Below are positions 5,509-50,457 of a stretch of DNA of 64,000 bases, piece by piece (the stretch's first letter is position 1; each line of letters starts with the position of its first letter). Made by a program: the position numbers and the translations under genes. The stretch covers positions 1 through 64,000 of the forward strand of contig JAYFMW010000016.1 in NCBI GenBank assembly GCA_042408215.1, read 5' to 3'. The notes below the pieces were generated by a model that did no database searches, was not told the DNA's origin, and was given only the letters and a program-made list of their open reading frames with translations. The stretch is from Microcoleus sp. GTDB lineage: Bacteria; Cyanobacteriota; Cyanobacteriia; Cyanobacteriales; Microcoleaceae.

Positions 5509-7218
5509 GTGAGCCAAGAATTTATACTGTCTGTTACCCCAGTTGGGGATGACGAATATCTAGTGCGGACAGAAAAGGTTGCACCCGGTGTACCCTTAGC
5601 AGAAGAACAAGTCCGCTGGCCGATCGACCAATGGCTTGCCCTGTCGAGTCAACTAATGAACGACCCCTTGCTGGGCGTGCTTCAGGCAAAAGCAGCACAG
5701 GGAAAGGGTTCTGCCAGCAGCGGGTCCTTGCTCGCTGCCAAAAACCCAGCGCCCAATTTAGTGGGTCTCGGTCAAGAACTATACAATGGGCTGTTTCAAG
5801 GCAACTTGCGCGATAGCTGGACTTGCGCTCAAGGCATAGCCCAGCACCGCAGGGAAGCGCTGCAACTGCGGCTGGGACTTAAAGGCAGGTGCTTGCCGCG
5901 GCTGCCGTGGGAAGTGCTGCACGCGGGCGATCGCCCCTTGGCCACCGGCACCGATGTTGTCTTTTCCCGCTATCAACCTGGTACTGGTTTATTCAAACCA
6001 ACCAGGCTACTCCCCAGTACCGGGCCTCTGAAAATTTTAATGGCGATCGCGTCTCCGAGCGATCGAGACAGCTTGCAGTTGATGCGAGAAGTCCGCCACT
6101 TACAACAAGAACTCCAAAACCGCATCGTCAACCCCCTTACTCACAGTCTGCACGCCCCGGAAATTCAACTGACTATTCTCGAACAGCCCGATCGAGAACA
6201 GCTTACCCAAGCCCTAGAACAAGGTAACTATCAAGTGCTGCACTACGCAGGCCACAGCAACTTGGGCCCCAGAGGCGGCGAACTCTACCTAGTCAGCAGC
6301 CGCACAGGCTTAACCGAAACCTTGAGCGGCGACGACTTAGCCGGCTTGCTCGTCAACAACGGCATTCAAATGGCCGTGTTCAACTCCTGCCGTGGCGCCT
6401 ACGGCGACTCCTCAGATCTCGCCCTGGACAGCCGGGAACGTAATTTAACAGAAGCTCTAGTCAAGCGGGGCATTCCGGCAGTGCTAGCAATGGCAGAACG
6501 CATCCCCGACGATGTAGCCCTGACTCTGACACGGCTGTTTTATCGCAACCTCAATCAAGGCTATCCGGTGGATCTCAGCCTGAGTCGAGCCAGGGCCGGA
6601 CTAATTTCTGCCTACGGTTCTCATCAGTTGTACTGGGCTTTGCCCATTCTCTACCAGCACCCCGAATTTGACGGCTATCTGACCGGCAAATCGGCCCAAA
6701 GCGCAGCGGGAGACTCTAGGGTGCAAAATTTCATGGCTACCGGATTGCAGCCGATTGCAGGGGCAGAAGGTCGGGCCCCGAAAGAGCTGGATGGGACTAC
6801 TAAAAATCAGGAATTATCAGTTTATGGCCCAGATCGGCCAGACATTCCTGACGGGAAAGGGGGCGATGATTCCCCGGCTCGGATTCAGGAGCATGATCCA
6901 CTGTCGGGTACCAATTCCCTCATTTCTACTTCTTCACCGAAGGTTGCTTCGGGAAGATCAACTCGCGCTGCTGTACCGCAGGCGAAACCGTTAAAAAAAT
7001 CGGGATTGAAAAAATGTCTGACTGTGACGCTTTGCTTGTTGTCGGTTGCTTTGGGCGCTGGCTTTTTGGGCTGGCGACACAGCCAACAAAAGAGCCCGAA
7101 ACCCGAAGAGTTACTGCCGACGGTACGGAGTCCCTTGTCGCAAAATTACAAACAAACAAAGCCGGTAAATCTCGATCGCACCCCTGACGGATCAGCTAAA
7201 GGCGATCGCTATGACTAA
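5509..7218 (+). CDS. hetF: HetF-like CHAT (caspase-like) domain protein with TM helix, apparently C-terminally shortened
   Basis: N-terminus SQEFILSVTPVGDDEYLVRTEKVAPGVPLAEE typical of HetF; CHAT dyad HYAGH and FNSC. Confidence 0.85.
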   Translation: MSQEFILSVTPVGDDEYLVRTEKVAPGVPLAEEQVRWPIDQWLALSSQLMNDPLLGVLQAKAAQGKGSASSGSLLAAKNPAPNLVGLGQELYNGLFQGNLRDSWTCAQGIAQHRREALQLRLGLKGRCLPRLPWEVLHAGDRPLATGTDVVFSRYQPGTGLFKPTRLLPSTGPLKILMAIASPSDRDSLQLMREVRHLQQELQNRIVNPLTHSLHAPEIQLTILEQPDREQLTQALEQGNYQVLHYAGHSNLGPRGGELYLVSSRTGLTETLSGDDLAGLLVNNGIQMAVFNSCRGAYGDSSDLALDSRERNLTEALVKRGIPAVLAMAERIPDDVALTLTRLFYRNLNQGYPVDLSLSRARAGLISAYGSHQLYWALPILYQHPEFDGYLTGKSAQSAAGDSRVQNFMATGLQPIAGAEGRAPKELDGTTKNQELSVYGPDRPDIPDGKGGDDSPARIQEHDPLSGTNSLISTSSPKVASGRSTRAAVPQAKPLKKSGLKKCLTVTLCLLSVALGAGFLGWRHSQQKSPKPEELLPTVRSPLSQNYKQTKPVNLDRTPDGSAKGDRYD

Positions 7219-7495
7219 CTTGAATTTTTGCTCCCTGATTTCACTGTTAAAATGTGCAATTCCCTGCCAATAAATCGACAGACCTCCAGGCCGAAATACA
7301 ACCCTGGTGGCCAGTCGAGTGGCTAGATGTCGATCGGGTGTCGATCGCTCCCCAACCCCAGTAGATCTCGCGCATCGACTGTTTGACGCTTGAAAATCCT
7401 TGAGGGTTGACTTGTGACGGTTGACGGTTAACTGTTCACGGTTGACTGTGGTCAGAAAACAGGGTTTAAAGCTGTAACGTGATTCTTGGACAAAG

Positions 7496-7666
7496 TTACC
7501 CATTGATGGAATTGTTGGGTAGCTCTCTAGCAAGTCTCTCGATCACGTCACTAAGACTGCTTGCGGTAAGCTGAACTCGTTTTTCCTCTAGCCACTTAGT
7601 AGCAGTCTCGGTCAGGCTGAGGTTGACTTTACGCTTAGGCTCGCTGTAAATCTTTTTTCTAGGCAT
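7496..7666 (-). CDS. Small ribbon-helix-helix (CopG-like) protein, divergent from tnpB
   Basis: 56 aa MPRKKIYSEPKRKVNLSLTETA...SLSDVIERLAR; alternating beta-strand pattern followed by two helices. Confidence 0.55.
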   Translation of the reverse strand: MPRKKIYSEPKRKVNLSLTETATKWLEEKRVQLTASSLSDVIERLARELPNNSING

Positions 7667-7727
7667 TTTGTTGTTCCGCATTAATTCCGCATACAATAAG
7701 AGTAAGGCAGAAATGAGGCAAAAGCAA

Positions 7728-8990
7728 ATGTTACTTAGTTTCAAGACGGAATTAAAACCTAACAACAAACAGGTAACTAGATTTCGGCAGCATTGCGGAG
7801 TAGCAAGACACGCTTACAACTGGGCGAATTCAATCATCCTTGAAACATTAAAAATCAGGGAGACGGATCAAAGCGTAAAGATCCCTTCTGCAATTGATCT
7901 ACACAAACGTTTAGTAGCGGAAGTCAAACCTCTGTATCCCTGGTATTACGAATCTTCCAAGGCAAGCCCACAGCAGAGTCTAGCTGAACTGAGGATAGCT
8001 TGGGATAGATGCTTCAAAAAGGTATCTAAACAACCTAGGTTCAAGAAAAAAGGTGTATCAGGTGACTCTTTTTATTTAGAGCAAGGAACCAAAGCAAAGC
8101 CAGGAATTAATAACGACGGCAAGCGCATCAAGTTACCTAAGATTGGTTGGGTTAGGCTGCACGAACCATTACCTATTACGGCGTTCCACAACTGCGTAAT
8201 CAGTCGAAAAGCTGACAGATGGTTTATTGCTTTTAAGTGCGAGATTGAGCAGCCCGCAACTCTACCTAGCCGTCCTACCGTTGGAGTTGATATCGGTATC
8301 AAAGAATTAGCTGTTTGTTCTAACGGCGAAGTCTTTGCCAACCCTAAAGCCTATGGTCGGATGAACCGTAAAATGAAACGTCTACAACGGCGTGTCAGCA
8401 AACGAGTCAAAGGTTCTAATAACCGCAAAAAAGCAGTCTCAAAACTAGCCAAGCTGCACCTAAAAGTATCAAATATCCGAAAAGATGCTATTCACAAGTT
8501 GACAACTTACCTCGCCAAAAACCACAGTGAGGTGAAGATTGAAGATTTGAATGTTAAGGCATTTTTGAAGAACCACAAGTTAGCTGGTGCGATCGCCGAT
8601 TGTGGAATGTATGAATTTCGCCGCCAGTTAGAATACAAAACTGAAAAGTTTTTGTCTAAATTGAGCTTGGTGGATAGATTCTTTCCTAGTAGTCAAATCT
8701 GCTCAAATTGTTGTAATCATCGGCACAGAATGCCCTTAAAACTTCGAGTTTTTGAATGCCCCAACTGTGGAAACATTCAAAATCGCGACCTAAACGCTGC
8801 GAAAAATATAGAACGTTGGTTTGAAGGAATATTTATTCCAGAACGTTCAGAATTGGCGGTGAGTTCCACCGTGTCAGCCTGGGGAGTAGACAAACCCGAT
8901 AGCAGTCATGCTGTCGCTACTGTGAAACAGGAAGTTAACACCACAAGCACTCATGTCCAGATAAGTCTAGATTTGGGTAGCTATGGGTAA
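7728..8990 (+). CDS. tnpB: RNA-guided endonuclease TnpB (IS607-type N-terminus)
   Basis: HTH N-terminus MLLSFKTELKPNN; RuvC GVDIG/IEDL/RDLNAA; Zn finger CSNC..CPNC. Confidence 0.92.
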   Translation: MLLSFKTELKPNNKQVTRFRQHCGVARHAYNWANSIILETLKIRETDQSVKIPSAIDLHKRLVAEVKPLYPWYYESSKASPQQSLAELRIAWDRCFKKVSKQPRFKKKGVSGDSFYLEQGTKAKPGINNDGKRIKLPKIGWVRLHEPLPITAFHNCVISRKADRWFIAFKCEIEQPATLPSRPTVGVDIGIKELAVCSNGEVFANPKAYGRMNRKMKRLQRRVSKRVKGSNNRKKAVSKLAKLHLKVSNIRKDAIHKLTTYLAKNHSEVKIEDLNVKAFLKNHKLAGAIADCGMYEFRRQLEYKTEKFLSKLSLVDRFFPSSQICSNCCNHRHRMPLKLRVFECPNCGNIQNRDLNAAKNIERWFEGIFIPERSELAVSSTVSAWGVDKPDSSHAVATVKQEVNTTSTHVQISLDLGSYG

Positions 8991-9211
8991 GTTTAATGGA
9001 ACGGAACAGTCAACAGTCAACAGCGAACAGCGCATCAATTTATTCAGCAAGCGATCGCCTCTTTGATAACACGTCGATCGCACCTAGCCAGTGCCGATGT
9101 TGAGTGCGGTTGGAACTAAAACCCTCTTCGATCGCATACCAACGGGCATCGTAAATTTTTACTCAACTTTTGCGGGTGATCCGTCCCCGTCGCCCTTTCT
9201 GTACAAGTTAT

Positions 9212-9670
9212 CAAAAAACTGGGTTGAAAACCCCGTCCTTTTAGGACGGCTTTAATTTCTTAAATCCCTTCCTAAAAATCAGGGAATTCCTGGTATTTGT
9301 GGTACACTAGGATACTCTAGGTTAAACTCCTTCGCCCAGAGTGAAACAGAGACTCAGACACACTTTTAGGCGTAAACCGGGGGACAAAGAGCGGCGAAAA
9401 CTCGCTATACAGCTAGAGGCTTAATACAGTCTCACAACCAGAAAAACAAACAATTTACTTTTGTTAGGTAGGGTAGGGCATACCCAAACTCGCTTGTCAA
9501 TATCCTAGTACGCTTTTGGAGATAGACCCTCTTTGGGTGACTGCGAATCAGACTCGTTAATTGGTAGGATTTCTACGGTTAAAAGGTTTGAGTATTGCCG
9601 TAAGGACGCAACACTTAAAGGTCAGTCGCTGAATTAAGAATCCCCATCCTTGATAGTTGGGGAGTGTCAA
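9212..9670 (+). mobile_element. Non-autonomous IS200/IS605 derivative (both ends, no ORF)
   Basis: Follows TTAT; left end with CCGTCC-TTTTA-GGACGG hairpin and right end AAGAATCCCC...GGGGAGTGTCAA both match the ends of the 18687-20037 element. Confidence 0.75.
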
Positions 9671-10300
9671 ATCTGGAACAGCTTAATAGAAGATTACTCC
9701 AACGGTAACAGAGCGAAGCCGAAGTGTCAGGCCATTCCAGACCCTCTCAAACTGGCTTTCCGAGTAGGTGGTGGCGACCAATGAGAACAAGTACCGCTGG
9801 CAAATTTGCTGGTAAAAGTTAACGGCCGGCAGCGAGATCCTTTCTACAGAATCGCTGCTGCGATCGCTCTAGGTATCAGTGCCCGATCGACCTAGCCCTC
9901 TTCGATCACATATTACCCTAACGGCAGACCGAATCGGCTGGGAGTGAATGGAGAAAAACGGTAACAGAGCGAAGCGCGGCGTCGCACGCGTGCGTAGTCG
10001 AAGTGTTCGACTACGCACGCGCCTACCATCGCATTTCGCGTAGTCGAAGTGTCGAAGTGCAAAAACGAAAGTATTTAATTCGCGAACATCCCGGACTCGA
10101 TCGACGATCGCGATGGTCCCATCAGGCGATCGCTGAAAATAGATCGCAGGTTGAGCATCCTTACTTTTACCCCAGGCCGATCGGCCGACCTAATTAATCC
10201 AAAATCTTATATTTAGAATTCTTAGTATTGACAGTGAAACAAAGTTCATCTAATGTGTTGTAATTGATATAAGTAAATTCCAATAAGCGAGGTACGGTCA

Positions 10301-10711
10301 ATGGCAGAAACAGCTACAGCACCCTTAACAGGAAAAGGTCTGCTTCAAAAAATCAAAGGCAGCGATTTGCCACGCAGAGAACTGGCAAAGCTTTGTGGCT
10401 ACTTCACAGTCAGCAAGAGTGGAGAAACGCGGATTAATCTGGCTGAGTTTTACGATGCAGTGCTAGCTGCTAAGGGAATTGAGCTAGAGAAGTCGAAAGC
10501 TGATGGACGCGGGCGAGAAGCGAGTTATCGAGCTAGCGTTCACAAGAATGGTTCGATCGTGATCGGGGCGAATTATACCCAAGAAATGGGATTAAAGCCA
10601 GGAGACGAGTTTGAAATTAAACTCGGATACAAGCACATTCGCTTGATTCAGATCGACGTGGACAGAGCTGATGTTGAATTAGATGATGAAGAGGAGGATA
10701 CAGAAGAATAA
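10301..10711 (+). CDS. Cyanobacterial AbrB-like transcriptional regulator (cyAbrB)
   Basis: PLTGKGLL...CGY...GRGREASYRASVHKNG...GLKPGDEFEIKLGYKHI signature. Confidence 0.9.
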   Translation: MAETATAPLTGKGLLQKIKGSDLPRRELAKLCGYFTVSKSGETRINLAEFYDAVLAAKGIELEKSKADGRGREASYRASVHKNGSIVIGANYTQEMGLKPGDEFEIKLGYKHIRLIQIDVDRADVELDDEEEDTEE

Positions 10712-10798
10712 CAGCAGCGATGCTGTCAGCCGATAACAAGGCGACGGGATTTCACATTCGCTACGTTAGTATTTGCGCGCAACCCTTCGATTTAACTG

Positions 10799-11266
10799 AT
10801 GAGCTGTCTCGACTATTTCTATTTTCTCTTGTCTCGCAAAGACTACAGTGCCTCTGAACTTCGCAAAAAGGGGCAAGAGAAAGGTTTTGGCAATGAGGAA
10901 ATATTGGAGGCGATCGCGCAAATTCAAGACCGGGGCTATCAGTCCGACACTCGTTTGGTGGCGAACTCGATCGCCTCTGCGGCAGGCAAATACGGGAAGT
11001 CTGCGGTGAAGCGCAAGTGCCTGCAAAAAGGAATTGCCAGCGATTTGTTCGAGCAAGTTTGGGAGGAGGAAATTTCGGAAAATCTGGACTCCTCAGCCGA
11101 AAAACTTGCCGGATTAAAAGCCAAAGTCATGCGGAAATACAAGATTGAGGATTGGGATCAAGTAGAACCAAAAACTAAGGGCAAAGTCTTGAATTACCTG
11201 CAATACAGGGGGTTTAATGCCTTTGAAATTTGGCTAGTTTGGCAAACGGAAGACTTGGACGAGTAA
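10799..11266 (+). CDS. recX: RecX-family regulatory protein
   Basis: LLSRKDYSASELRKK N-terminus and YLQYRGF C-terminus. Confidence 0.8.
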   Translation: MSCLDYFYFLLSRKDYSASELRKKGQEKGFGNEEILEAIAQIQDRGYQSDTRLVANSIASAAGKYGKSAVKRKCLQKGIASDLFEQVWEEEISENLDSSAEKLAGLKAKVMRKYKIEDWDQVEPKTKGKVLNYLQYRGFNAFEIWLVWQTEDLDE

Positions 11267-25533: not shown

Positions 25534-27820
25534 TCCGGATTGCGATCGAATTCCCAGGAGACTTAATTGGTAGATGCACCCTGAATAATTAACTCCCGAC
25601 CAATTTTGGCCGGGTTTTTTTTGCCTATTGCAGCCACAACCACAAATTTTGCCAATTTTGCCAAACAGTCCTGAAAGAGGCGTGGAGATACCGGAGACTA
25701 AATTAGTAGATGCACCCTGATTGATTAACTCCCGACCAATTTTGGCCGGGTTTTTTTTGCGTATTGCAGCTAAAACCACAAATTTTGCCAAATTTTGCCA
25801 AACTGTCCTGAAAGAGGCGTGGAGATACCGGATACTAAATTAGTAGATGCACCCTGATTGATTAACTCCCGACCAATTTTGGCCGGGTTTTTTTTGGGCG
25901 ATCGCACTTTCGCCACAAATCCTATCGTTTACGGTTGTTTCGGAATGATTTAACCGCAGAGACTCTTCTAGGGCGCAGAGTCTCCAGAAGAGAGAGATGA
26001 ATCATTCGGATGAAGAGAGGATTTGAGCTCATTCCCAAAATCCACAAATATCCGTGTTAATCTGCGTCATCTGCGGTGAAAAATCCAAACTGTCCTGAAA
26101 GAGGCGTGGAGATACCGGATACTAAATTAGTAGATGCACCCTGATTGATTAACTCCCGACCAATTTTGGTCGGGTTTTTTTTGGGCGATCGCAGCCAAAA
26201 CCAGAAAATAGCACTCTCCCAACAAATATCCGCGTTAATCTGCGATATCTGCGGTGAAAAATCCAAACTGTCCTGAAAGAGGCGTGGAGATACCGGATAC
26301 TAAATTAGTAGATGCACCCTGATTGATTAACTCCCGACCAATTTTGGCCGGGTTTTTTTTGCCTATTACAGCCACAACCACAAATTTTGCCAAATTTTCC
26401 GAAACAGTCCTGAAAGAGGCGTGGAGATACCGGATACTAAATTAGTAGATGCACCCTGATTGATTAACTCCCGACCAATTTTGGCCGGGTTTTTTTTGCC
26501 TATTACAGCCACAACCACAAATTTTGCCAAATTTTCCGAAACAGTCCTGAAAGAGGCGTGGAGATACCGGATACTAAATTAGTAGATGCACCCTGATTGA
26601 TTAACTCCCGACCAATTTTGGCCGGGTTTTTTTTGCCTATTACAGCCACAACCACAAATTTTGCCAAATTTTCCGAAACAGTCCTGAAAGAGGCGTGGAG
26701 ATACCGGATACTAAATTAGTAGATGCACCCTGATTGATTAACTCCCGACCAATTTTGGCCGGGTTTTTTTGGGCGATCGCAGCCAAAACCAGAAAATAGC
26801 ACTCTCCCAACAAATATCCGCGTTAATCTGCGATATCTGCGGTTAAAAATCCAAACTGTCCTGAAAGAGGCGTGGAGATACCGGAGACTAAATTAGTAGA
26901 TGCACCCTGATTGATTAACTCCCGACCAATTTTGGCCGGGTTTTTTTTGCCTATTGCAGCCACAACCACAAATTTTGCCAAATTTTGCCAAACAGTCCTG
27001 AAAGAGGCGTGGAGATACCGGATACTAAATTAGTAGATGCACCCTGATTGATTAACTCCCGACCAATTTTGGCCGGGTTTTTTTTGCCTATTACAGCCAC
27101 AACCACAAATTTTGCCAAATTTTCCGAAACAGTCCTGAAAGAGGCGTGGAGATACCGGATACTAAATTAGTAGATGCACCCTGATTGATTAACTCCCGAC
27201 CAATTTTGGCCGGGTTTTTTTTGCCTATTGCAGCCACAACCACAAATTTTGCCAAATTTTCCGAAACAGTCCTGAAAGAGGCGTGGAGATACCGGATACT
27301 AAATTAGTAGATGCACCCTGATTGATTAACTCCCGACCAATTTTGGCCGGGTTTTTTTTGGGCGATCGCACTTTCGCCACAAATCCTATCGTTTACGGTT
27401 GTTTCGGAATGATTTAACCGCAGAGACTCTTCTAGGGCGCAGAGTCTCCAGAAGAGAGAGATGAATCATTCGGATGAAGAGAGGATTTGAGCTCATTCCC
27501 AAAATCCACAAATATCCGTGTTAATCTGCGTCATCTGCGGTGAAAAATCCAAACTGTCCTGAAAGAGGCGCTGTGGAGGCGGAGACTAACTTAGTAGATG
27601 CACCCTGATTGATTAACTCCCGACCAATTTTGGCCGGGTTTTTTTTGCGTATTACAGCCAAAACCAGAAAATAGCACTCTCCCAACCAATATCCACGTTA
27701 ATCTGCGTCATCTGCGGTTAAAAATCCAAACTGTCCTGAAAGAAGACCTTGAGACTGGAAAGTAAATAAAGATGCACCCTGATGAATCAACCCCAGCCAA
27801 TTTTGGCCGGGGTTTTTTTT
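25534..27820 (+). ncRNA. Tandem array of 14 NsiR1-like sRNA units (promoter-like box, ~55-nt RNA, intrinsic terminator)
   Basis: AGATGCACCCTGA core near 25571, 25707, 25844, 26131, 26309, 26446, 26583, 26720, 26897, 27034, 27171, 27308, 27595, 27769; each followed by a CCCGACCAA-TT-TTGGCCGGG hairpin and T7-8, and preceded ~30 nt upstream by TCCGGA or TCCTGA. Confidence 0.7.
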
Positions 27821-36582: not shown

Positions 36583-38016
36583 TCAACTGAGTACAGTTAG
36601 ACCGCAGGCTTCTTTTTCCCTTTTTGCAAGGGCTTTTTTGAGTGACGGAGTTCCCCCGCCACTTTCGTGATTCAGACCAATTCTTTTGATCAGCTTGGCT
36701 GAATTTTCATCTCTATCTAAAGACTCACCACATTGACAAGAATGCCATCGGTCTGACAATTCTTTAGGTGCTTTATTCAGGCAATTCCAACAATGTTGAG
36801 ACGTACCCTTGGGGTCAACAAATAGAACACTTTTGCCTAATTTCCAGGCGACGTATTTAATCACAGTAGCGAACTGACCGTGAGCCGCGTCTAACATTGA
36901 TTTATTCAAACCGCTTTTAGCCGCCTGACCATTTGGCAAATAGACCACATTACCATCTTCAATATCAGTTTTGATTTTCGCACGTCTAGTTAGATTCTTT
37001 ATCCTCAAATCTTCGAGAATCAGAACATCACACTGTTCAAATAATTTCTGTGCGGTTTTGAATTGAAAATCGAGTCTCGCTCTAACTACAAATTGATGAA
37101 GTTTTGAGATTTTATCCTTGATGATTTTCCCAGGTTTAGAGCCTTTAACTCTTTTCGCTAATTTGGCTTGAAGTCTTGCTAAATTCTCGGCAGACTTTCT
37201 TAAGAACCTAGGGTTTTCGACAAGTTCACCATTAGATAAATAGACATAATTTGTGATTCCCAAATCAATACCAATACTATTCTTTTCGGTCGGTTGAATT
37301 TCTACAACCGATACGGTCACTGTTTTATCTTCTAGCGTCAGGGAAATATACCATCCGTCTGCTTCTCTGATAACTGTACCAGTCTTAACCTTAAATCCTG
37401 TTGGTATTGAACGATGGAACACCATCGGCACTTGACCTATTTTTGCCAGGTCAATACAAATCCGATTTTGCTCATCTTTGATAATGTTTAAATTATCAAG
37501 TTGTGGATAGGTGAAAGATTTGTAGTAGTGGAAACCTTTAAACCGAGGTTTGCCCCTACGATTACCATTCTTGTCGGGTGTCGTAAAATTTGAGAAAGAA
37601 GTTTCCACCCTGTTAACTACATCCTGTAAAACTTGGGAATCCAAGTTCTTGTATTCAGGAAATAAATTTTTGGTGTTTTTCAAGTCAGCTAACTGTACGT
37701 TCAACCATTGTACATATCCGCCGTCAATGTTTGAAAAAACATCCCCTTTTTGAGTTATGGGATTACCAGATTCATCCTTCTTTCTACCGTCTCTAGTTTG
37801 TATCCTAGTTAGAGGAATATTCTTGTAAATTTCCTCAATGGGGACTATCGACGCAGTTAAAGGACAGGAATTGATAGGTGTTCTAGTTGATTCCCACCAG
37901 TTGAATCTTTCTCCCAATCGGTAATTATATTGTCTTCGGCAAAGTTCTAAATGAGCCGATATCGTTACCAGTTGAGATTTCGTTGGTTTCAGTTTATATT
38001 TGTACGTCAGTTGCAT
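36583..38016 (-). CDS. tnpB: RNA-guided endonuclease TnpB (long, 477 aa)
   Basis: YKYKLKPT HTH; GIDLG/LEDL/RDENSA; CWNC..C.C; end hairpins near 36565-36610 and 38145-38185. Confidence 0.92.
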   Translation of the reverse strand: MQLTYKYKLKPTKSQLVTISAHLELCRRQYNYRLGERFNWWESTRTPINSCPLTASIVPIEEIYKNIPLTRIQTRDGRKKDESGNPITQKGDVFSNIDGGYVQWLNVQLADLKNTKNLFPEYKNLDSQVLQDVVNRVETSFSNFTTPDKNGNRRGKPRFKGFHYYKSFTYPQLDNLNIIKDEQNRICIDLAKIGQVPMVFHRSIPTGFKVKTGTVIREADGWYISLTLEDKTVTVSVVEIQPTEKNSIGIDLGITNYVYLSNGELVENPRFLRKSAENLARLQAKLAKRVKGSKPGKIIKDKISKLHQFVVRARLDFQFKTAQKLFEQCDVLILEDLRIKNLTRRAKIKTDIEDGNVVYLPNGQAAKSGLNKSMLDAAHGQFATVIKYVAWKLGKSVLFVDPKGTSQHCWNCLNKAPKELSDRWHSCQCGESLDRDENSAKLIKRIGLNHESGGGTPSLKKALAKREKEACGLTVLS

Positions 38017-41950: not shown

Positions 41951-42739
41951 TTAAGCTCCCATGCCCGAATACTGTTTCAAACCCTGTCGCCACAGCCACC
42001 GATTCCACACAAAAAACACCGCACTCCAACCCAACATTACCAACAAACCGCGCCCTACATCGACAGGTAATCCGATCAAAATTGAAGCGGGAAAATGAAT
42101 TAAATAAGGAAAAGGTGTCCACAAAACTACTTCGCGCACGGATGCGGGAAATACTTCCAGTGGCGCAACAAGTCCCGATAAAAATAGGTAAATTAACAAC
42201 CAGAATTGTTCGATCGCACTTGCCCTCTCTATCCAAAAAGCAAACAGCGCAAAAGTATACTGTATCAGAAAGCGCAGACAAAAAGCCAATACAATTACCA
42301 GCAAAAACAGCAAAAATCTCCCCGCACTCGGCAGCCAAAAAGACTGCGGGTAAAGTGCAAAAAACAGCAGCACCAATCCGCAGACAAACGGCAACCGGGC
42401 CAACCTTTCGGAAACGTGAGAGGCAAAGTGATGCCAGACGGGATCTAGAGGCTGCAACAACCTATTAGATAATGTCCCTTGCACGACTTCTTTTTCAAAT
42501 TCCCAAATCACCCAGACGACATTGGTTTGTCGGACAATGAAAGCTGCTAAAAAATAACGGGCAAAGTCGATCGGCTTTAACCCAAATTCCCCAGTTTGAG
42601 CCGCCTGCATCCAGACACCCATCAAGATAAACGGCAAAGCTCCCGACAGCGCCCACAAAAACAATTCTGCTCGGTATTCGAGCATATAAGCGTAGTAGGT
42701 AATTAGCAAAGTTTTAGCAATTCTGATGGATTTTGTCAT
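41951..42739 (-). CDS. ABC-2 transporter permease
   Basis: YMLEYRAE, G.LS..LLQP, SG...PL..FP; multiple TM helices. Confidence 0.9.
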   Translation of the reverse strand: MTKSIRIAKTLLITYYAYMLEYRAELFLWALSGALPFILMGVWMQAAQTGEFGLKPIDFARYFLAAFIVRQTNVVWVIWEFEKEVVQGTLSNRLLQPLDPVWHHFASHVSERLARLPFVCGLVLLFFALYPQSFWLPSAGRFLLFLLVIVLAFCLRFLIQYTFALFAFWIERASAIEQFWLLIYLFLSGLVAPLEVFPASVREVVLWTPFPYLIHFPASILIGLPVDVGRGLLVMLGWSAVFFVWNRWLWRQGLKQYSGMGA

Positions 42740-42752
42740 ATTTTAGATTTAA

Positions 42753-42915
42753 TTTTTCGGTGTTAGCAACGGGCTAGAAGCCCGTTCCACAAAAACATTG
42801 AAACTCTAGTGGAACAGGCCGGAAAGCCTGTTCAGTTTTTCGGTGTTAGCAACGGGCTAGAAGCCCGTTCGACAAAACATTGAAACTCTAGTGGAACAGG
42901 CCGGAAAGCCTGTTC
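42753..42915. repeat. Two tandem ~80-bp palindromic repeats; third copy at 49369-49450
   Basis: TTTTTCGGTGTTAGCAACGGGCTAGAAGCCCGTT...GTGGAACAGGCCGGAAAGCCTGTT. Confidence 0.9.
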
Positions 42916-43133
42916 AAGGTGAGTTCGACGGCTGAAATCCGAATCAACTAAAAGTGTAAATAGGAGCCTCAATATCATACAGAGATGGCTAATGTAGGAG
43001 CAATTGCGGAGTTGACCCTAGAGCCTTTCGTTCCTCAAGGTAAACTCCACGAAGGGCATTGCCTCAATATAGCTTCTGGTCAAAGTTTGAAGAATTTGAG
43101 AAGCAATGACCACCCTACATTTAATTCTAATTC

Positions 43134-44532
43134 TCAGTTCGCTAATTGTTGTTTGACATATTCCTTAATCGCAGGTTGAATAGTAAAAAATGTCTCTCCC
43201 GTTTCTGAATTTTTCTCTATCAATGAACGCCTTAATAGAGATTGTAAAGCGTTGAGTAATTCTGATTGGGGTATATAGGCTAAGATTTGGGAAATGGTAA
43301 TGCGATCGATCGCCCAGATTAGCCATAGTTGAGATCGCCTTTTTTTCAAGGGCTGATAATCGCTTAAACTGCTGATTTAATTTATATTCCAAATCTGCAA
43401 ATAAAAACGTGCTTTCCTGTTGCCATAAATCGGTAAAGCCTAAATCTTGAATAATTCTAGCAACCATTTTTAACCATAAAGGATTACCACTATATTGATT
43501 AATCATCTCTTGCCATTTTTCCTGAGTGTCTAAACCTTGTGATTTCAGAATTTCCCAAGCTGCATCCACATCTAAACCAGCTAATTGTAATGATTTACAG
43601 CTTTGATTTTCTGCTTCTAAGTCGGCAATTTCTAAGGGTTGATATCCACTCAGTAAGACAACGCAACTATTACGATCCGATTCTCCTATTTGTTTGAATA
43701 GTGAGGCATAATCTTCATATCCAGATTCATATTTACCTGCTAATTCTCCACTTTGAAAAAGCATCTGCACATCATCTAAGATGATTAAACAGCGATGTTT
43801 TCGCAAGGTGTCTATTAGGTGCGTTATGGAAGTTTGTTTCAAGTTTTGTTGATTATCTGTATTGACACTTCCAGACAGGAATTGTAAGAAGTTTGTTTGA
43901 ATTATCTCTAAACTAGGTTGATTGCGTAAGCTGCGCCAAAAGACATAATCAAAATTATCGGCAATTTGTTCGATTAATTTGACAGCGATCGCAGTTTTCC
44001 CAATACCAGATATACCTAATATTGTCACTAAGCGGCATTTTTCTTGAAGAATCCATTTTTGTAATGTAGTTAATTCTTGATAGCGCCCATAGAAGGTAGA
44101 AAGATTAGGCATTTCGCTTAAATCTTTTTTATTTGTAGCAGAGACATCTGGCTTGTGTATATTCGGATTTTTAGGGTCAGTTTGTGATACATTTGGGCAA
44201 TGTACAATTGTAGAACCACAATTAAAACTATTAACCTGTGCAAAGTCTGTTGCAGAATTTGATAAATCAATAGCTAATTTAGTTTTTTCCATAACTGCGC
44301 GAAAATTAGATTGATTCATATCTTCTTTTAATATATCTGAGAGAAGATTCCATAATTTAAAGCCTACACCTTTAACATATTTTGCCGATCTGATTTCAGT
44401 CTTAGCAATTTCGGGATATTTTAGATTTTGCCAAGTACCGCGCAAAATCGCTTTTTGCAAACTGTTTAAGCGTTTTCCGGTTTTGGTATAAACCAGATCA
44501 TCAAGAAAGGCTATGCCATTTTCAACTTTCAT
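43134..44532 (-). pseudogene. HTH + NB-ARC/STAND ATPase regulator, frameshifted near its 3' end
   Basis: GISGIGKT Walker A, IILDD Walker B, GNPL; the C-terminus (ITISQ...LQSLLRRSLIEK) lies in another frame after GCGATCGATCGC at 43302. Confidence 0.8.
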
Positions 44533-44723
44533 AGATTAGCTGAGGGCGTAAGTGCATTTTACTACTATAGCATAACTAAATGTGACTTTTGATAACTTTA
44601 GTCGAAAGAGGTAACTTTTTGTAACTTAAAGATCCTTTCAAAATAGCTACTTTATGTAACTTGGTTAGGCTAGACACGCATTAAATTATGAATTATAAAT
44701 TACCTATGGTTGGTTGAAAACGA

Positions 44724-45785
44724 TTGAGGATTCTTTTGATGCAGCCCGAATTGAAGTCATATCAATACAATTATCCTTTAAGGAAAAATGATGTGCTTGT
44801 TTGCCTTATCGATCGACATAGAATATATCCAGAACTTTCGCAAGAGATCTTATTAGCATCAAACAAATATGGCTTTACTTATTGCGAAAATATTGATTGT
44901 TCACTTCAATCTCATTCAAATTATATCTTGAGCCATTTAATCGTTGTTGATGGATTAGATCATCCAGAATCAACAACGTTCGACCATATGGATGTTATCA
45001 ATAATTTTACGTCTGCTACGATTGCAATGTCTTATTCATCTAAACAGTCTTTTGACTCGGCAAGTCCGACTGTAGAAAAAATGAAAAAGAATTATAGTCA
45101 AATTAATTTTCTCCTCCCTACACAGCATGGAGATAATTATATACCATCTCTTGATAAGTTGGTAGACAATGCTATTTGTGATTCTGTTAGAATCAAATAT
45201 GAGCCAAAATGTATTAGCAAAAATATAGACAAAATTCTTACCGAACATATTAGAGATTTTTTTGGGAATGTAAGTGCCTTCGTTGGGAAAAATAGTCTTT
45301 TTCATCGGGCTGAGACTGATGGATTTATCTCTTTAAGATGCCCAGATGGAGAAGGTTTTTTTATTACATCCACGAAAACGAGTAAGACTAATATTGATTT
45401 AAGTCGCATAGCCTACGTTCATTTTTACGATGAGTCATCCAATTTGCTGGCATACTCAGGCAATTTCCTTCCTTCATCAGATAGCGTAGAAGCTTCTGTA
45501 ATATATTCAAAAATGCTCAATGTTAGTGCAATTTTGCACACACACGCGAGTCGTCAATTCACTCGTAATCCCATGTTTTCCGATAAAATTGCAGTTCCAC
45601 CAATGAGGTACGGTGAGAAAGAACTTGGCGATAGTTTAGTTAGTTATTTTAAATCTAAAGAGGAAATTGATATGGCTATTATGGAAGATCATGGTGAGTT
45701 GTTCTTATCAACTGAGAGTCAGCCACATCTGGCTTATCAGGAAATCAAAAGAACCATAGAAAGTAATTTGCGTAAAGCGAAATAA
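44724..45785 (+). CDS. Unknown N-terminal domain fused to a class II aldolase/adducin domain
   Basis: G.ISLR, FFIT, PSSD, ILHTHA, MEDHG metal-binding His pattern. Confidence 0.7.
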   Translation: MRILLMQPELKSYQYNYPLRKNDVLVCLIDRHRIYPELSQEILLASNKYGFTYCENIDCSLQSHSNYILSHLIVVDGLDHPESTTFDHMDVINNFTSATIAMSYSSKQSFDSASPTVEKMKKNYSQINFLLPTQHGDNYIPSLDKLVDNAICDSVRIKYEPKCISKNIDKILTEHIRDFFGNVSAFVGKNSLFHRAETDGFISLRCPDGEGFFITSTKTSKTNIDLSRIAYVHFYDESSNLLAYSGNFLPSSDSVEASVIYSKMLNVSAILHTHASRQFTRNPMFSDKIAVPPMRYGEKELGDSLVSYFKSKEEIDMAIMEDHGELFLSTESQPHLAYQEIKRTIESNLRKAK

Positions 45786-45827
45786 CAGTAAGCCAAATAA
45801 CAGTGAAATCAGAGGAGTAACATAGAT

Positions 45828-46772
45828 ATGTCACATGAATTATATTTTAATTATGCTGAACTTTATGGATTAATAGCCGATGACCGGAATTTTATAGAAG
45901 AGCTAAACCGTCTTAGAGCGTTTACGCTTCCGTCAACTGGTCTCTTTGTCGAACTTTTTGCTGGACCAGCATATCATGGCACTCATCTTCTGAATGGTGG
46001 TTGGAATGGAAAAGTTGTAGCAATTGACAATTCTCCTGAAATGGAAAAAGTTGCTTGTAATAGAGGTTTTAACGGCAACTATCTGTGCGCTGATGCAATC
46101 ATTGGTTTAGAGCAAATTGTCAATGCATATTTGATATTTATTCCAAGATACTCAATTGTATTAGTTGACAAAGAATATGCGGCTAACTTATTTAACCAAG
46201 CCGCAAAATCTCTCCATACAAATGGCGTATTCTTTGTGGAAATCCATAAAGATGCAAATATTGAAAATCAGTTATATATTGGTGGAAGATGGGACGAACT
46301 CAGTATTCATAAGCGTATCCTAGAAACGCCTTTAGGTAAAATAGAGTGCATTTGGCCCTATAAAACTGAAATAGTGGACTCAGATCAAAAAATTGTGGAT
46401 ATGGATGTCAGAATCACCATTGCCAAAGATAATTTAGTTGATGAGTACATATTTACTTCCAGAGAACATCTCCATACAAAGGCTGATATCCTAAACTTTG
46501 CGGATGAAGCAGGTCTTAAAGAATTAAGAGAGCGAAGTTGCGAACTCGTGGATTCTTATCTTCTGGCGTTTGGTTTAAAGGAGTGCGACACAAAAACTAA
46601 CAGTCCCATATTGGCTGATACATTTCAATCAGACAGTTTAGAAGTGTTATCATTTAATAGACTCTTTGACATTAGCTCTGTTGATGCTTGCTCTGTTCAA
46701 TTAAAGAAGTCTGGTCTTGATGCAGACGCACATGATTCTCCCCTTTCTCTTCATGTATATAACCTACTATGA
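45828..46772 (+). CDS. Class I SAM-dependent methyltransferase
   Basis: GGAG RBS; YAELY N-terminus, VELFAGPAYHG, AIDNSPEM, L..NGVFFVE. Confidence 0.8.
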   Translation: MSHELYFNYAELYGLIADDRNFIEELNRLRAFTLPSTGLFVELFAGPAYHGTHLLNGGWNGKVVAIDNSPEMEKVACNRGFNGNYLCADAIIGLEQIVNAYLIFIPRYSIVLVDKEYAANLFNQAAKSLHTNGVFFVEIHKDANIENQLYIGGRWDELSIHKRILETPLGKIECIWPYKTEIVDSDQKIVDMDVRITIAKDNLVDEYIFTSREHLHTKADILNFADEAGLKELRERSCELVDSYLLAFGLKECDTKTNSPILADTFQSDSLEVLSFNRLFDISSVDACSVQLKKSGLDADAHDSPLSLHVYNLL

Positions 46773-48322
46773 AAACTATGAATAAACAAACGATCGCAAT
46801 TGTCCGTGTACCCTATTTGTCCGTATATAATCTGCTTGATGTTCGTGAAGAGCCGATTGCATCTTCATTGGCAGGATATTTAGATAGTGTAGGTGCCGCT
46901 TTTGAAGTTTTTGATTTCCACCTCGATCGTTCTGTAAACGTAAATACTTTAATCGAATTTGGAGCCAGTATTTACATATTATGTGTTCGTGGCACAGGGC
47001 TGCATTGGAAATATGCTCTTAAAATTTCACAACATCTTCTTTCAAAAACAGAAGCAAGGGTGATTTTTTATGGTCAAACTGGCAAACTTCAATATTGGAC
47101 AAGTCCATATCCTGAACGAACAGCAGTTATTCTGCACGACGAGCGAACTATTGCGAAAGAACTCGGACTGCCAGCCGATGGGCCTGATTTTAGTTCAAAC
47201 TTAACACATTATCCTTATGGATTGAAGTATATCAACGATCTCGGAACTAGACGCAAATTTTTTAAGGCAACAATAGAAACTACTCGTGGTTGCCACTATA
47301 GTTGCAAGTTTTGCTTCATCAATCACGGCACAAATTATGTTAATAGATATAGTCGCTGCCCTGCTGAAGTCGTAGTTAGGGATATTCAACAATACCTCGA
47401 TAATGGAATAAATAAGTTCTGGTTTTATGATGCTGAATTTATTGGCGCGGATCGAGAACATTATCCAGAGGTAATAAATTTATTGACAGGATTACGAGAT
47501 CAATTCTGTGGAAATATTGAAATAATGATATATAATCGAGCCGATACATTGGAGAGATTTGGGAACTACGAATTACTGGCAGATGCGGGTATTAAATCAA
47601 TCTTATTAGGCATAGAATCATTGCATGATGATGATTTAAAAGGGATGCGAAAAGGACAAACCAGTGCCACTGCTATAAATGCAATTAGAAAATTGCGAGA
47701 AAATCAGATATTTTGTAATTTATCATTTATTCTCTTTAACAAAACAGCAACTATACAGAGCTTACAAGAAAACATTTCTAGGTTGGCTGTTCTATATAAT
47801 GAAGAGAATTTTATCTATTTAGGCCAGACACTTTATTTTAGCTATGCCTTTGAATCAGATTGGGCACCAAATAGCCAAATGAGGTCACTTTCTAATAAAA
47901 CTAAGTTGTCTGGATCGACAGGCTCAACGATATCACCGTCAGAAGGTGTAACTTTCGACCCGTCTCTTGAACCTTTCGCTGAAATCTGCCGTATTATAAA
48001 CTATGAACAAATTCGGAAGCTTTGTGAACTTAATCTTAGAAAAGAAGATGGTGGACTTGCTGAGAAGCATAAAATTCACGAATGGGCAACGCTCCTCAAT
48101 TTATTAACATTGAATTTGATGCAGGTTGCTTTAGATGAATTTAAGTCTGGCTCTCTCACAATACATACTGTGCCATCTTATGAAAAATGGGTATATGCTT
48201 CATTCCAGAAATTTAATAATTCAATTTTGCCGAATGAAATAGCATATACTATTACTGATAAATGGGGTGATTTTGAGGGTGACTGGAACGGATGGGAGCA
48301 TCAGATTCCATCAATTTTTTAA
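46769..48322 (+). CDS. Radical SAM enzyme with B12-binding-like N-terminal domain
   Basis: TRGCHYSCKFC (CxxxCxxC), FYDAEF, LGIES, KG motifs. Confidence 0.85.
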   Translation: MKTMNKQTIAIVRVPYLSVYNLLDVREEPIASSLAGYLDSVGAAFEVFDFHLDRSVNVNTLIEFGASIYILCVRGTGLHWKYALKISQHLLSKTEARVIFYGQTGKLQYWTSPYPERTAVILHDERTIAKELGLPADGPDFSSNLTHYPYGLKYINDLGTRRKFFKATIETTRGCHYSCKFCFINHGTNYVNRYSRCPAEVVVRDIQQYLDNGINKFWFYDAEFIGADREHYPEVINLLTGLRDQFCGNIEIMIYNRADTLERFGNYELLADAGIKSILLGIESLHDDDLKGMRKGQTSATAINAIRKLRENQIFCNLSFILFNKTATIQSLQENISRLAVLYNEENFIYLGQTLYFSYAFESDWAPNSQMRSLSNKTKLSGSTGSTISPSEGVTFDPSLEPFAEICRIINYEQIRKLCELNLRKEDGGLAEKHKIHEWATLLNLLTLNLMQVALDEFKSGSLTIHTVPSYEKWVYASFQKFNNSILPNEIAYTITDKWGDFEGDWNGWEHQIPSIF

Positions 48323-48351
48323 AACAAGGTCAAAATCTAGAGGTTATTATC

Positions 48352-49044
48352 ATGTCTGAAAATAGAGTCGTATTTCTTACTGGCGCATCAAAGGGGTTAG
48401 GCGAAAATATTTGTGGACACTTGTTAGCAAGTGGTTTCAAAGTATTTGCAACTGCCAGGAACATTCCTGATAGTGCCAAAACAAAGAACAATGACCAAAT
48501 CATGTGGCATTCTCTTGATATATCTAGTTACACTCAATGCGAAACCGCTATAAATTCATGTCTGGAAAAGTTTGGTCATATTGATATCCTTATCAATAAT
48601 GCGTCTGCCTGCACAGGTGGAGTTACCATTGCTGATATTCCACACGCAGGTATAGATATTGAGATTGATACAACCTTTAAGGGAGCCGTCTATCTTTCAA
48701 AAATATTCATTGCAAAGATGTGTAAACGTCAGCAGGGAAAGATATTTTTCATTTCTTCAACATCTGGACTTGCTGGTGAACCAGGCAACAATTTTTACAG
48801 CATTTATGCTGCTTCTAAAGCAGCAATTATTAGATATTCAGAATGTTTGAATCAAGATATTTCTCAATATAATATGCAATCCCATGTTATAGTTCCGTGC
48901 AATATGAGAAGTAGCAACTTTGAACGCGAAGATGCTGTATCTTATTCAGATGTATCCGATCTTTTAATCAAAATGATAAAAATCGGTGATAATATTTCCC
49001 TTTCTCAAGTGATCCTAAGACCTGCCATAACGGATAACGTATAA
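48352..49044 (+). CDS. SDR oxidoreductase
   Basis: TGASKGLG, LINNA, YAASK; GAGG RBS before MSEN. Confidence 0.85.
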   Translation: MSENRVVFLTGASKGLGENICGHLLASGFKVFATARNIPDSAKTKNNDQIMWHSLDISSYTQCETAINSCLEKFGHIDILINNASACTGGVTIADIPHAGIDIEIDTTFKGAVYLSKIFIAKMCKRQQGKIFFISSTSGLAGEPGNNFYSIYAASKAAIIRYSECLNQDISQYNMQSHVIVPCNMRSSNFEREDAVSYSDVSDLLIKMIKIGDNISLSQVILRPAITDNV

Positions 49045-49476
49045 GCCGGAACGCAGTAAGGCGCCATATATTACTCAGTAGTCATGCCAAACATTGCGCT
49101 CCGCTCCGCCGCCCTCGGTTCACCGTTAAACGCAATCCCAACCTAAACTAACCCATAGTGCGAGGTTGAGGGTTCCAGCTTATCCCGAATTCATGCTAAG
49201 TTAACGTGAGTTCGATTGAGTCCGATCGCCTCACCGACACTCGGATTGGGCGGAAACGTTAAACCTGACAAGCTAATTTCCTGTCGCCCTTGGGAATTAT
49301 AGCTTGTGGTATTTTTATGTGAATTCTGACCACCCAATAGGCTTAATTTTCCCATCGAACTCACGTTGAGTTTTTCGGTGTTAGCAACGGGCTAGAAGCC
49401 CGTTCCACAAAAACCTTGAAACTCTAGTGGAACAGGCCGGAAAGCCTGTTATGGAGAATGAGCAGAACCAAAAAAA

Positions 49477-50457
49477 TTACACTTTTCCCGTGCGAAAAAC
49501 CCTGCCAATTACTTCTTCAATTGGCGGATCGGTAACAGTCAAATCCACCACTTCCAACTCCGCCAACATCTTCGCCACCCCCACCATCAATTCCTCCCTT
49601 TTTACCAAAAAACGCACCGACAGTCCCTCAATTGATTCTACCTCCCCGTAAGCAGAAGCACAATCTTTAGACAGCGGATTGGCTAATTCTACTTGAACTT
49701 CCCGATAAGGTGCAAATCTGTCGAGCAATCCATCTAAATTGCCATCATAAACTAATTGCCCTTCATGAATTAACAAAACTCGCTTGCACAAAGCAGTAAT
49801 GTCAGCCATATAGTGGCTCGTCAACAGCACCGTTGCTTGATAGCGTTCGTTATATTCCCGCAGAAATTTCCTAACACTAAACTGTGCGTTTATATCCAAA
49901 CCTAATGTCGGTTCATCTAAAAATAATACCTCCGGTTGATGCAGCAGCGCCGCCATCAATTCAGCTTTCATGCGTTCACCCAAAGACAGTTTTCGCACCG
50001 GCTGATTTAACTTGCCTTCTAGGGATAACATTTCGGTTAATTCCCCGACTCGCTGTCGATAATCTCGATCGGGAATGCCGTAGACAGCCGCATTGATTCT
50101 CAGAGAGTCGAGGACTGGCAAATCCCAGATTAACTGCTGTTTTTGACCCATGACTAAGGTGATTTTTTGCAAAAAATCAGCTTCGCGGCGGAAAGGAGTG
50201 CGATCGCACACACTTACCGTACCAGCAGACGGATAAATTAAACCAGTCAGCATTTTCAGCGTCGTAGTTTTGCCCGCACCATTAGCCCCCAGAAACCCCA
50301 CCACCTCCCCAGCTTCAATACTGAAAGAAACTCCCTCAACTGCTTTCACATTGCGATAAGTGCGGTTGAAAAAGTGCCGCAGCGTTCCTTTCAGTCCCGG
50401 TTCTTTAATGGCGATCGGATAAACTTTGCTCAAGTCTTCAACTAAGATAATTGGCAT
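49477..50457 (-). CDS. ABC transporter ATP-binding protein (partner of the 41951 permease)
   Basis: GANGAGKT, LSLGE, LFLDEP, TSH. Confidence 0.95.
   Translation of the reverse strand: MPIILVEDLSKVYPIAIKEPGLKGTLRHFFNRTYRNVKAVEGVSFSIEAGEVVGFLGANGAGKTTTLKMLTGLIYPSAGTVSVCDRTPFRREADFLQKITLVMGQKQQLIWDLPVLDSLRINAAVYGIPDRDYRQRVGELTEMLSLEGKLNQPVRKLSLGERMKAELMAALLHQPEVLFLDEPTLGLDINAQFSVRKFLREYNERYQATVLLTSHYMADITALCKRVLLIHEGQLVYDGNLDGLLDRFAPYREVQVELANPLSKDCASAYGEVESIEGLSVRFLVKREELMVGVAKMLAELEVVDLTVTDPPIEEVIGRVFRTGKV

Follow-up and report, generated by a model that had tools for sequence, protein, structure and literature searches.

The locus considered here raises a simple question: what is made, and from which substrate, by four neighboring genes of a Microcoleus sp. 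that encode an aldolase-fold protein, a methyltransferase (MT), a radical S-adenosylmethionine enzyme (rSAM), and a short-chain dehydrogenase/reductase (SDR)? The genes lie in a stretch of 64,000 nucleotides (positions 1 to 64,000 of contig JAYFMW010000016.1, assembly GCA_042408215.1), hereafter the window, and their coordinates are given in Table 1. A preliminary description of this DNA, made from its letters alone, did not recognize the gene combination, and our searches of databases and of the open-access literature (PMC and bioRxiv) likewise matched it to no characterized pathway and returned no description of the cluster. Our answer, held with about even confidence, is that the cassette is an undescribed pathway of the type that yields peptides made on the ribosome and modified after translation (RiPPs), one that would remodel, decarboxylate, and N-methylate the C-terminal end of a peptide into a small product. 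We favor this reading because an open reading frame (ORF) for a short peptide precedes the rSAM gene in three of three actinomycete clusters, which is the usual layout of a RiPP precursor.

Conserved Gene Clusters in Unrelated Bacteria

At E < 1e-67 the rSAM matches 39 relatives, after which there is a cliff to 8e-8, and a profile search likewise outlines a small, bounded family; the aldolase-fold enzyme has 29 relatives and the MT has 9. Family members number about 60, among them Marithrix MFK5970604.1, Symploca NER29492.1, Paracidovorax ABM33355.1, and Myxococcus MFP2961001.1. An rSAM match apparently shares a genome with 9 of the 29 aldolase matches and with 5 of the 9 MT matches (an indirect measure), and one such case was then read directly. 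Accessions of the rSAM and MT are adjacent in Marithrix and those of the rSAM and aldolase are two apart in Symploca, while further named carriers are Paracidovorax, Nocardiopsis, Saccharopolyspora, Amycolatopsis, Myxococcus, and Roseivirga.

Besides the window, four loci were read directly, in three actinomycete genomes (G1114, G1190, and G1329) and in a provirus (L161). The actinomycete carriers (1 of 401, 1 of 147, and 1 of 51 genomes in three separate genus-level searches) all have the gene order peptide-rSAM-MT-aldolase-SDR-PhyH, with an additional MFS gene in G1114 and a convergent gene for an APH-like kinase beside the cluster in G1190 and G1329. The provirus locus (6290-11056) reads rSAM-MFS-MT-aldolase, holds no SDR, and forms AT-rich cargo where the tail module ends, with frameshifts in the MFS and MT genes. 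An ORF of 36 aa, led by a ribosome-binding site (RBS), stands before its rSAM gene; another frame of this small ORF contains ExLFLxE in a stretch that has no start codon.

Identity between the window and G1114 is 36% for the rSAM, 37% for the aldolase, and 32% for the MT, with invariant residues common to both, and judged by these alignments the three enzymes are orthologues. For the SDR, orthology between the window and the actinomycete clusters is unsupported (blastp E of 1e-3 to 0.6, weaker than for unrelated SDRs); the slot that it fills after the core genes is the same in both. The compact, conserved pathway proposed in the preliminary description is thus borne out by the core genes standing together at the four loci read directly, and on the evidence of sequence the rSAM, MT, and aldolase are co-inherited in unrelated bacteria.

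Two further groups of proteins were seen around this family. Proteins P0088-P0098 (from the cluster of P0020) place the rSAM family on dozens of contigs from three species of Paracidovorax, and proteins P0132-P0159 form sister families of B12-fold rSAMs of 510-580 aa with the same N-terminal motif pattern and a helical C-terminus. Scans of genome and metagenome contigs with a generic CxxxCxxC pattern gave only distant B12-rSAMs among the matches listed and are uninformative on distribution. Viral contigs were scanned with P0020, with the rSAM of the window, with the alignment of the MT, and with the peptide motif, and gave no match; 19 genomes of one cyanobacterial family, searched to reach the Symploca copy, gave none either, and plasmid and phage collections held no family member.

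A Short Peptide Gene Under Protein-Level Selection

Directly upstream of the rSAM gene in each actinomycete cluster is an acidic ORF of 23-25 aa that ends in FVDEAIVP and a stop codon. The three peptides (MESTQFDQAGTVEDIFVDEAIVP, MEDSVVDFEQAADVEDVFVDEAIVP, and MEDRITDFEQEADIEDVFVDEAIVP) are encoded 53-198 nt before the rSAM start, each behind a GGAG-type RBS, and their alignment has 14 invariant positions, the last 8 residues among them. Over the last 19 codons the pairwise comparisons contain 5, 4, and 7 synonymous vs. 4, 6, and 2 non-synonymous changes, with 23 of the 37 pairwise base changes at third positions, and in the last 9 codons all changes are synonymous. Since codons vary across the final eight residues and the residues themselves do not, and since third-position changes dominate, we take the ORF to be under selection as a protein.

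A hairpin lies 9-14 nt past each peptide stop (z of -3.3, -1.4, and -3.7). None of the hairpins has a U-tract and no leader or riboswitch of Rfam was found at these loci, both of which argue against a regulatory leader. A precursor gene followed by a hairpin and then by the maturases is the usual RiPP arrangement, and an acidic scaffold with a short C-terminal core is reminiscent of the mycofactocin and pearlin precursors.

The Radical SAM Enzyme

Membership of the rSAM in its superfamily is clear from the CxxxCxxC motif, whose cysteines (C175, C179, and C182) are invariant in 39 of 39 relatives, from a Pfam match over cut-off, and from a partial TIM barrel in the predicted model (pLDDT 90). 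The model has a five-strand alpha/beta N-domain and aligns along the whole chain, from residue 1-6, to OxsB, TsrM, and TokK, which points to a Rossmann domain of cobalamin-binding type. Since Pfam B12-binding gives no match in the window rSAM, the assignment of this domain comes from the predicted fold; a phmmer search of the PDB with the N-domain alone gave no useful alignment. We describe the protein as a cobalamin-fold enzyme with putative cobalamin binding. The host genome has cobQ. The family is set apart from all named families.

OxsB is the top match both by sequence profile (E 9e-15; next 4e-9) and by Foldseek (E 1e-17, TMq 0.62-0.65), while the VIA Z score ranks AprD4 first (21.8, rmsd 3.9, 398 residues aligned), ahead of OxsB (19.9), TsrM (18.8), and MgmA (18.7), all at identities of 15-18%. 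As these scores span only 18.7-21.8, the fold alone is a poor guide to the substrate.

The kind of reaction may be narrowed by R74, which follows strand 3 and is invariant in 39 of 39 relatives and in 49 of 49 aligned members. Alignment end offsets map it to TsrM 70 (R69), TokK 77 (W76), and OxsB 183 (N186), i.e., within 1-3 residues, from which we infer a place near the lower-ligand position of cobalamin. According to a review (PMC12931638), the lower-axial residue is hydrophobic in radical methylases and not so in TsrM (Arg69) or OxsB (Asn186/water); the same review lists AprD4, in spite of its having the same fold, as unrelated to B12 enzymes. Radical methylation seems the less likely reaction of the rSAM, because the closest structures (OxsB and AprD4) are non-methylating and an invariant Arg is predicted near the lower-ligand position. 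The methylation of carbon or phosphorus implied by the preliminary description is accordingly not what the models suggest.

The Aldolase-Fold Enzyme and the Methyltransferase

The model of the aldolase-fold enzyme (pLDDT 92) joins a flavodoxin-like N-domain to a C-domain of FucA fold. The C-domain aligns to the class II fold with a VIA Z of 18.4 (rmsd 2.3, 164 residues), and H272, H274, H323, and D253 are invariant in 30 of 30 sequences alongside a PSSD motif, which together identify a class II aldolase/adducin domain. The N-domain (about 160 aa) is CoaBC/HAL3-like at a borderline Z of 8.7-9.1. In the phosphate pocket of FucA, which we take to be Asn29/Thr43/Gly44/Ser71/Ser72, the Thr and Ser-Ser are kept, the Gly is mostly changed to Lys, and the Asn is replaced by Phe or Tyr in nearly all members; the family has several new invariant basic residues that could rebuild an anion site. 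Solved members of the class II aldolase fold include decarboxylases and dioxygenases. A role in 5'-deoxyadenosine salvage was considered and rejected, with no kinase-isomerase pair found and DrdA ranking no higher than FucA.

The MT resembles small-amine N-methyltransferases and carries a clade-specific C-terminal tail of about 60 aa. The arsinothricin (ArsL/ArsM) reading was also rejected, at 60 bits vs. a cut-off of 450 and with no Cys-rich tail.

Proposed Pathway and Competing Explanations

In the RiPP-type pathway, the rSAM would first remove a hydrogen from a C-terminal residue that is aliphatic (Ile, Val, or Pro in the actinomycetes), which would be rearranged or oxidized and not methylated, with cobalamin probably in the role of electron sink that has been proposed for OxsB. 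The SDR would then form a ketone by oxidizing a hydroxyl, which PhyH would introduce in the clusters that have it, the aldolase-fold metalloenzyme would decarboxylate the resulting beta-keto acid or cleave it by retro-aldol, and the MT would N-methylate the freed amine. Finally, a host protease would release the product, for export by the MFS protein or handling by the adjacent APH-like kinase. All of these chemical steps are inferred; what was observed is the co-inheritance of the rSAM, MT, and aldolase genes, the conserved gene for the peptide, the folds, and the invariant residues.

Several points weigh against this pathway. The three peptides all come from one rSAM clade (100% support in a tree built by a quick method) and are hence not independent across the family, and a peptide ending in Pro before the stop resembles the TnaC arrest leader. 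No dedicated protease or RiPP recognition element (RRE) gene was seen in the five clusters (window, G1114, G1190, G1329, and the provirus), PhyH has no tblastn match in the host genome, and the substrates of the closest solved rSAMs are a nucleotide for OxsB and an aminoglycoside for AprD4, neither of them a peptide. A homologue of the peptide is also missing from the window, the provirus locus, and the genome as a whole, where the peptide profile scores at best 35 without gaps (self, 86); small ORFs nearby resemble the peptide no more than chance allows, and the 36-aa ORF of the provirus is unrelated to the actinomycete peptides (shuffle p 0.44). That no precursor peptide is evident, as first described, thus holds for the window, while three of three actinomycete homologues do have a precursor-like ORF.

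The best local candidate for a substrate is the conserved C-terminal tail of the MT. Conservation within the protein is highest in its final 14 residues (0.81 vs. 0.43 overall), which occupy the position before the rSAM that the peptide gene holds in the actinomycetes; the likeness of the tail to the peptides (p 0.86) and to the provirus upstream ORF (p 0.34) is not significant. We consider it unlikely that the cassette makes a new peptide-scaffold class of product, its aliphatic C-terminus remodeled by a non-methylating cobalamin-fold rSAM and a class II aldolase-fold decarboxylase, for which, in the window's clade, this tail is the scaffold and no separate gene is needed. By peptide score, a small ORF at 44714 ranks among the best 0.6% of the small ORFs in the genome, which is non-significant given that 103 local candidates were scored, and strain variation in its region is non-synonymous in both frames. 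As separate observations, the aldolase start (44734-44748) has an in-frame 15-bp duplication in the strains of runs X16 and X18, in differing versions, and the end of the MT, VYNLL (46750-46769), recurs near the overlapping rSAM start (46820-46840), for which chance, duplication, or mimicry are possible.

The main alternative, possible if doubtful, is that the cassette makes a modified antimetabolite of nucleoside or sugar type from a free metabolite, with the actinomycete peptide as a regulatory leader that is replaced here by the NB-ARC regulator. The chemistry would be an OxsB-like ring rearrangement, or an AprD4-like dehydration followed by reduction by the SDR, aldol cleavage, and N-methylation. 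This explanation best accounts for the absence of the peptide in the window, and it draws on the rank of OxsB by sequence and Foldseek (469 residues aligned, including the helical bundle), on the top VIA Z of AprD4, whose partner is the reductase AprD3, on the usual action of class II aldolases on sugar phosphates, and on the APH-like kinase beside two of the three actinomycete clusters. On the other hand, structural scores at 15-18% identity do not set a substrate, the phosphate-site Asn of FucA is lost in nearly all members, and the clusters showed neither a phosphatase nor a nucleotidyltransferase, a glycosyltransferase, or an aminotransferase.

We think it quite unlikely that the window holds an orphan copy, peptide-based elsewhere, whose precursor was lost on transfer and which now has no product. 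The failure to find a precursor in the window or genome, the frameshifted regulator of this strain, and the absence of PhyH, kinase, and MFS homologues from the host genome would all be consistent with such a loss; all four ORFs are nevertheless intact, the enzymes have near-identical intact homologues (95-97%, in sequence clusters of 9-10 members), the window's clade in the rSAM tree has 14 members, and at least half of the island's words occur in 11 runs from several studies, most of the labelled ones being from freshwater or sediment. No RNA run is among the holders listed, which says nothing about expression. An anti-phage or nucleic-acid-modifying system is very improbable: one copy is provirus cargo, ESM Atlas feature look-alikes of the rSAM and aldolase include phage clusters (56-100% viral), and the rSAM has a weak PADLOC candidate match (E 1e-4), as against 50,697 phage records without a tblastn match for the rSAM or aldolase, PHROG and viral-fold searches without a convincing match, and neighbors (exporter, dioxygenase, kinase) typical of small-molecule clusters.

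Acquisition of the Cassette and Features of the Window

The four genes and their regulator form an island between genes for an ABC-2 permease (41951-42739) and an ABC ATPase (49477-50457). In 63 of 78 congeners these two flanking genes are on one contig within about 0.5 kb; for the remainder, by hand count, they are on different contigs in 8 and the permease row was not listed for 7. The rSAM is found in 0 of 143 other genomes of the family and the aldolase in 0 of 400 genomes searched from the order. A single contig of run X13 carries 43037-49156 between flanks unlike those of the window, which means that the regulator and the four genes move as a unit. The preliminary suggestion of a foreign origin is supported by the empty site in congeners, the other flanks in X13, and the absence from related genomes, and as far as genome comparison can tell the four genes with the regulator are a horizontally acquired cassette. 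The palindromic repeat of about 85 bp that marks both boundaries has 24 genome matches of 50 bp or more.

Composition agrees with what had first been noted of the four AT-rich ORFs and the divergent NB-ARC gene, whose positions and strands stand. The GC content of the four-gene block is 0.361 vs. 0.451 for the genome (0.28-0.29 at third codon positions), and equally low values occur in just 0.25% of 4.3-kb genome windows. The cluster has no perfect HIP1 site, as had been seen by eye, which is a weak point on its own since 8.6% of equal-sized genome windows share it.

Of the domain labels first assigned, those of the class II aldolase (Aldolase_II, only in the C-terminal half of the ORF), the rSAM (Radical_SAM), and the SDR (adh_short) stand by Pfam matches over cut-off, whereas the MT match is under cut-off (E 0.028) and the B12-type domain is identified by fold. 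All NCBIfam models score under their cut-offs for the four enzymes, and no curated family fits any of them. The NB-ARC family has many paralogues in the host genome (35-47% identity), and compared with runs X3, X8, and X13 the gene in the window has 4 extra bases near 43303 that shift its 3' frame and C-terminus.

Table 1. Positions of the cassette genes and associated features in the window.
Feature	Coordinates	Strand	Details
Aldolase-fold ORF	44724..45785	+	353 aa; likely start ATG 44739 (RBS position and family alignment)
MT ORF	45828..46772	+	314 aa; class I SAM methyltransferase, ELFAGPAYH motif
rSAM ORF	46769..48322	+	517 aa; cobalamin-binding-type N-domain (predicted), CxxxCxxC at 175-182, C-terminal helical bundle
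SDR ORF	48292..49044	+	250 aa; likely start ATG 48352 (RBS position and family alignment)
NB-ARC regulator gene, divergent from the four ORFs	43165..44532	-	Pfam match over cut-off
MT tail, final 14 residues	46728..46769	+	Candidate docking tail or fused substrate
25-codon TTG ORF in another frame, overlapping the aldolase start	44714..44791	+	Weak precursor candidate
Palindromic repeat of about 85 bp, two tandem copies	42748..42914		Left island boundary
Palindromic repeat of about 85 bp, third copy, 96% identical	49366..49450		Right island boundary

Three further features were noted. Just past the SDR stop (49027-49133) is an imperfect inverted repeat that looks attC-like by eye, and the island match of run X13 ends at 49156; an integron attC was rejected, as the repeat folds no better than shuffles (z -0.3) and is present in a single copy. 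A 477-aa ORF on the reverse strand (36583-38016) looks by eye like a TnpB of the IS200/IS605 family. Thirteen tandem Rfam NsiR1 matches, all above the gathering score and in most cases spaced by 137 bp, lie on the forward strand at 25568-27646; NsiR1 arrays are known in heterocyst-forming cyanobacteria.

Implications and Comparison with Known Systems

Should the RiPP-type reading be true, peptide maturation would gain an enzyme of class II aldolase fold, for which we found no example in the open-access literature, and a new reaction for a cobalamin-fold rSAM family apart from all named ones. Both this reading and the nucleoside/sugar alternative predict that an undescribed metabolite is exported by cyanobacteria of fresh water, by actinomycetes, and by plant-associated Paracidovorax. 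The precursor-like gene of the actinomycetes is too short for routine annotation, and the system, with four or five enzymes and a single peptide of 25 residues, is small and directly testable.

Among known systems, OxsB, which carries out the ring contraction of oxetanocin A (PDB 5UL2-4), aligns with the window rSAM over 469 residues that cover the cobalamin domain, rSAM core, and helical bundle, and probably shares with it a polar residue near the lower face of cobalamin. The two are 18% identical, and the window rSAM is without the extra N-terminal domain of OxsB. The partner of OxsB is the HD-domain phosphohydrolase OxsA; no OxsA-like protein occurs in the five clusters read, which sets the cassette apart from an oxetanocin-type pathway. 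AprD4, of apramycin C3' deoxygenation, offers the top VIA Z and the pairing of an rSAM with a reductase, since AprD4 works together with AprD3 (PMC5461906). It differs in its 15% identity, in that the NCBIfam AprD4 model is not matched, and in that there are no aminoglycoside genes here. The FucA/AraD/OtnC/MtnB/TqaM enzymes share the fold of the aldolase (Z 14-18), and the three metal-binding His and PSS[D/E] are retained in the window enzyme, which differs from FucA-type enzymes in its extra N-domain of about 160 aa, the replaced phosphate-site Asn, and equivalog scores all far below cut-off.

On the peptide side, the aminopyruvatides (ApyD/ApyS) and biphenomycins (BipD) come from RiPP clusters in which a B12-rSAM acts on short cores. 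The former offer a RiPP precedent for a B12-rSAM together with a methyltransferase (PMC10635010), and BipD is a non-methylating B12-rSAM (PMC12707348). The present clusters differ in having no MNIO, P450, or TldD and in the invariant AIVP end without an aromatic residue, and the window rSAM misses the ApyD model. A further paper, PMC11052375, was set aside, the portion at hand being unrelated to the cluster.

The closest parallel in logic is found in the daptides (MpaBCDM), for which oxidation and decarboxylation of the peptide C-terminus followed by N-methylation is described (PMC11350588). The daptide RiPP methyltransferase is the best NCBIfam match of the window and G1114 MTs, at 22-27 bits vs. 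a cut-off of 175. The RRE adapter, RRE-dependent decarboxylase, iron-type dehydrogenase, and aminotransferase of daptide clusters are absent, and the actinomycete peptides end in Pro where daptides end in Thr, so the cassette is not a daptide cluster; the succession of C-terminal oxidation, decarboxylation, and N-methylation that we propose is nevertheless alike.

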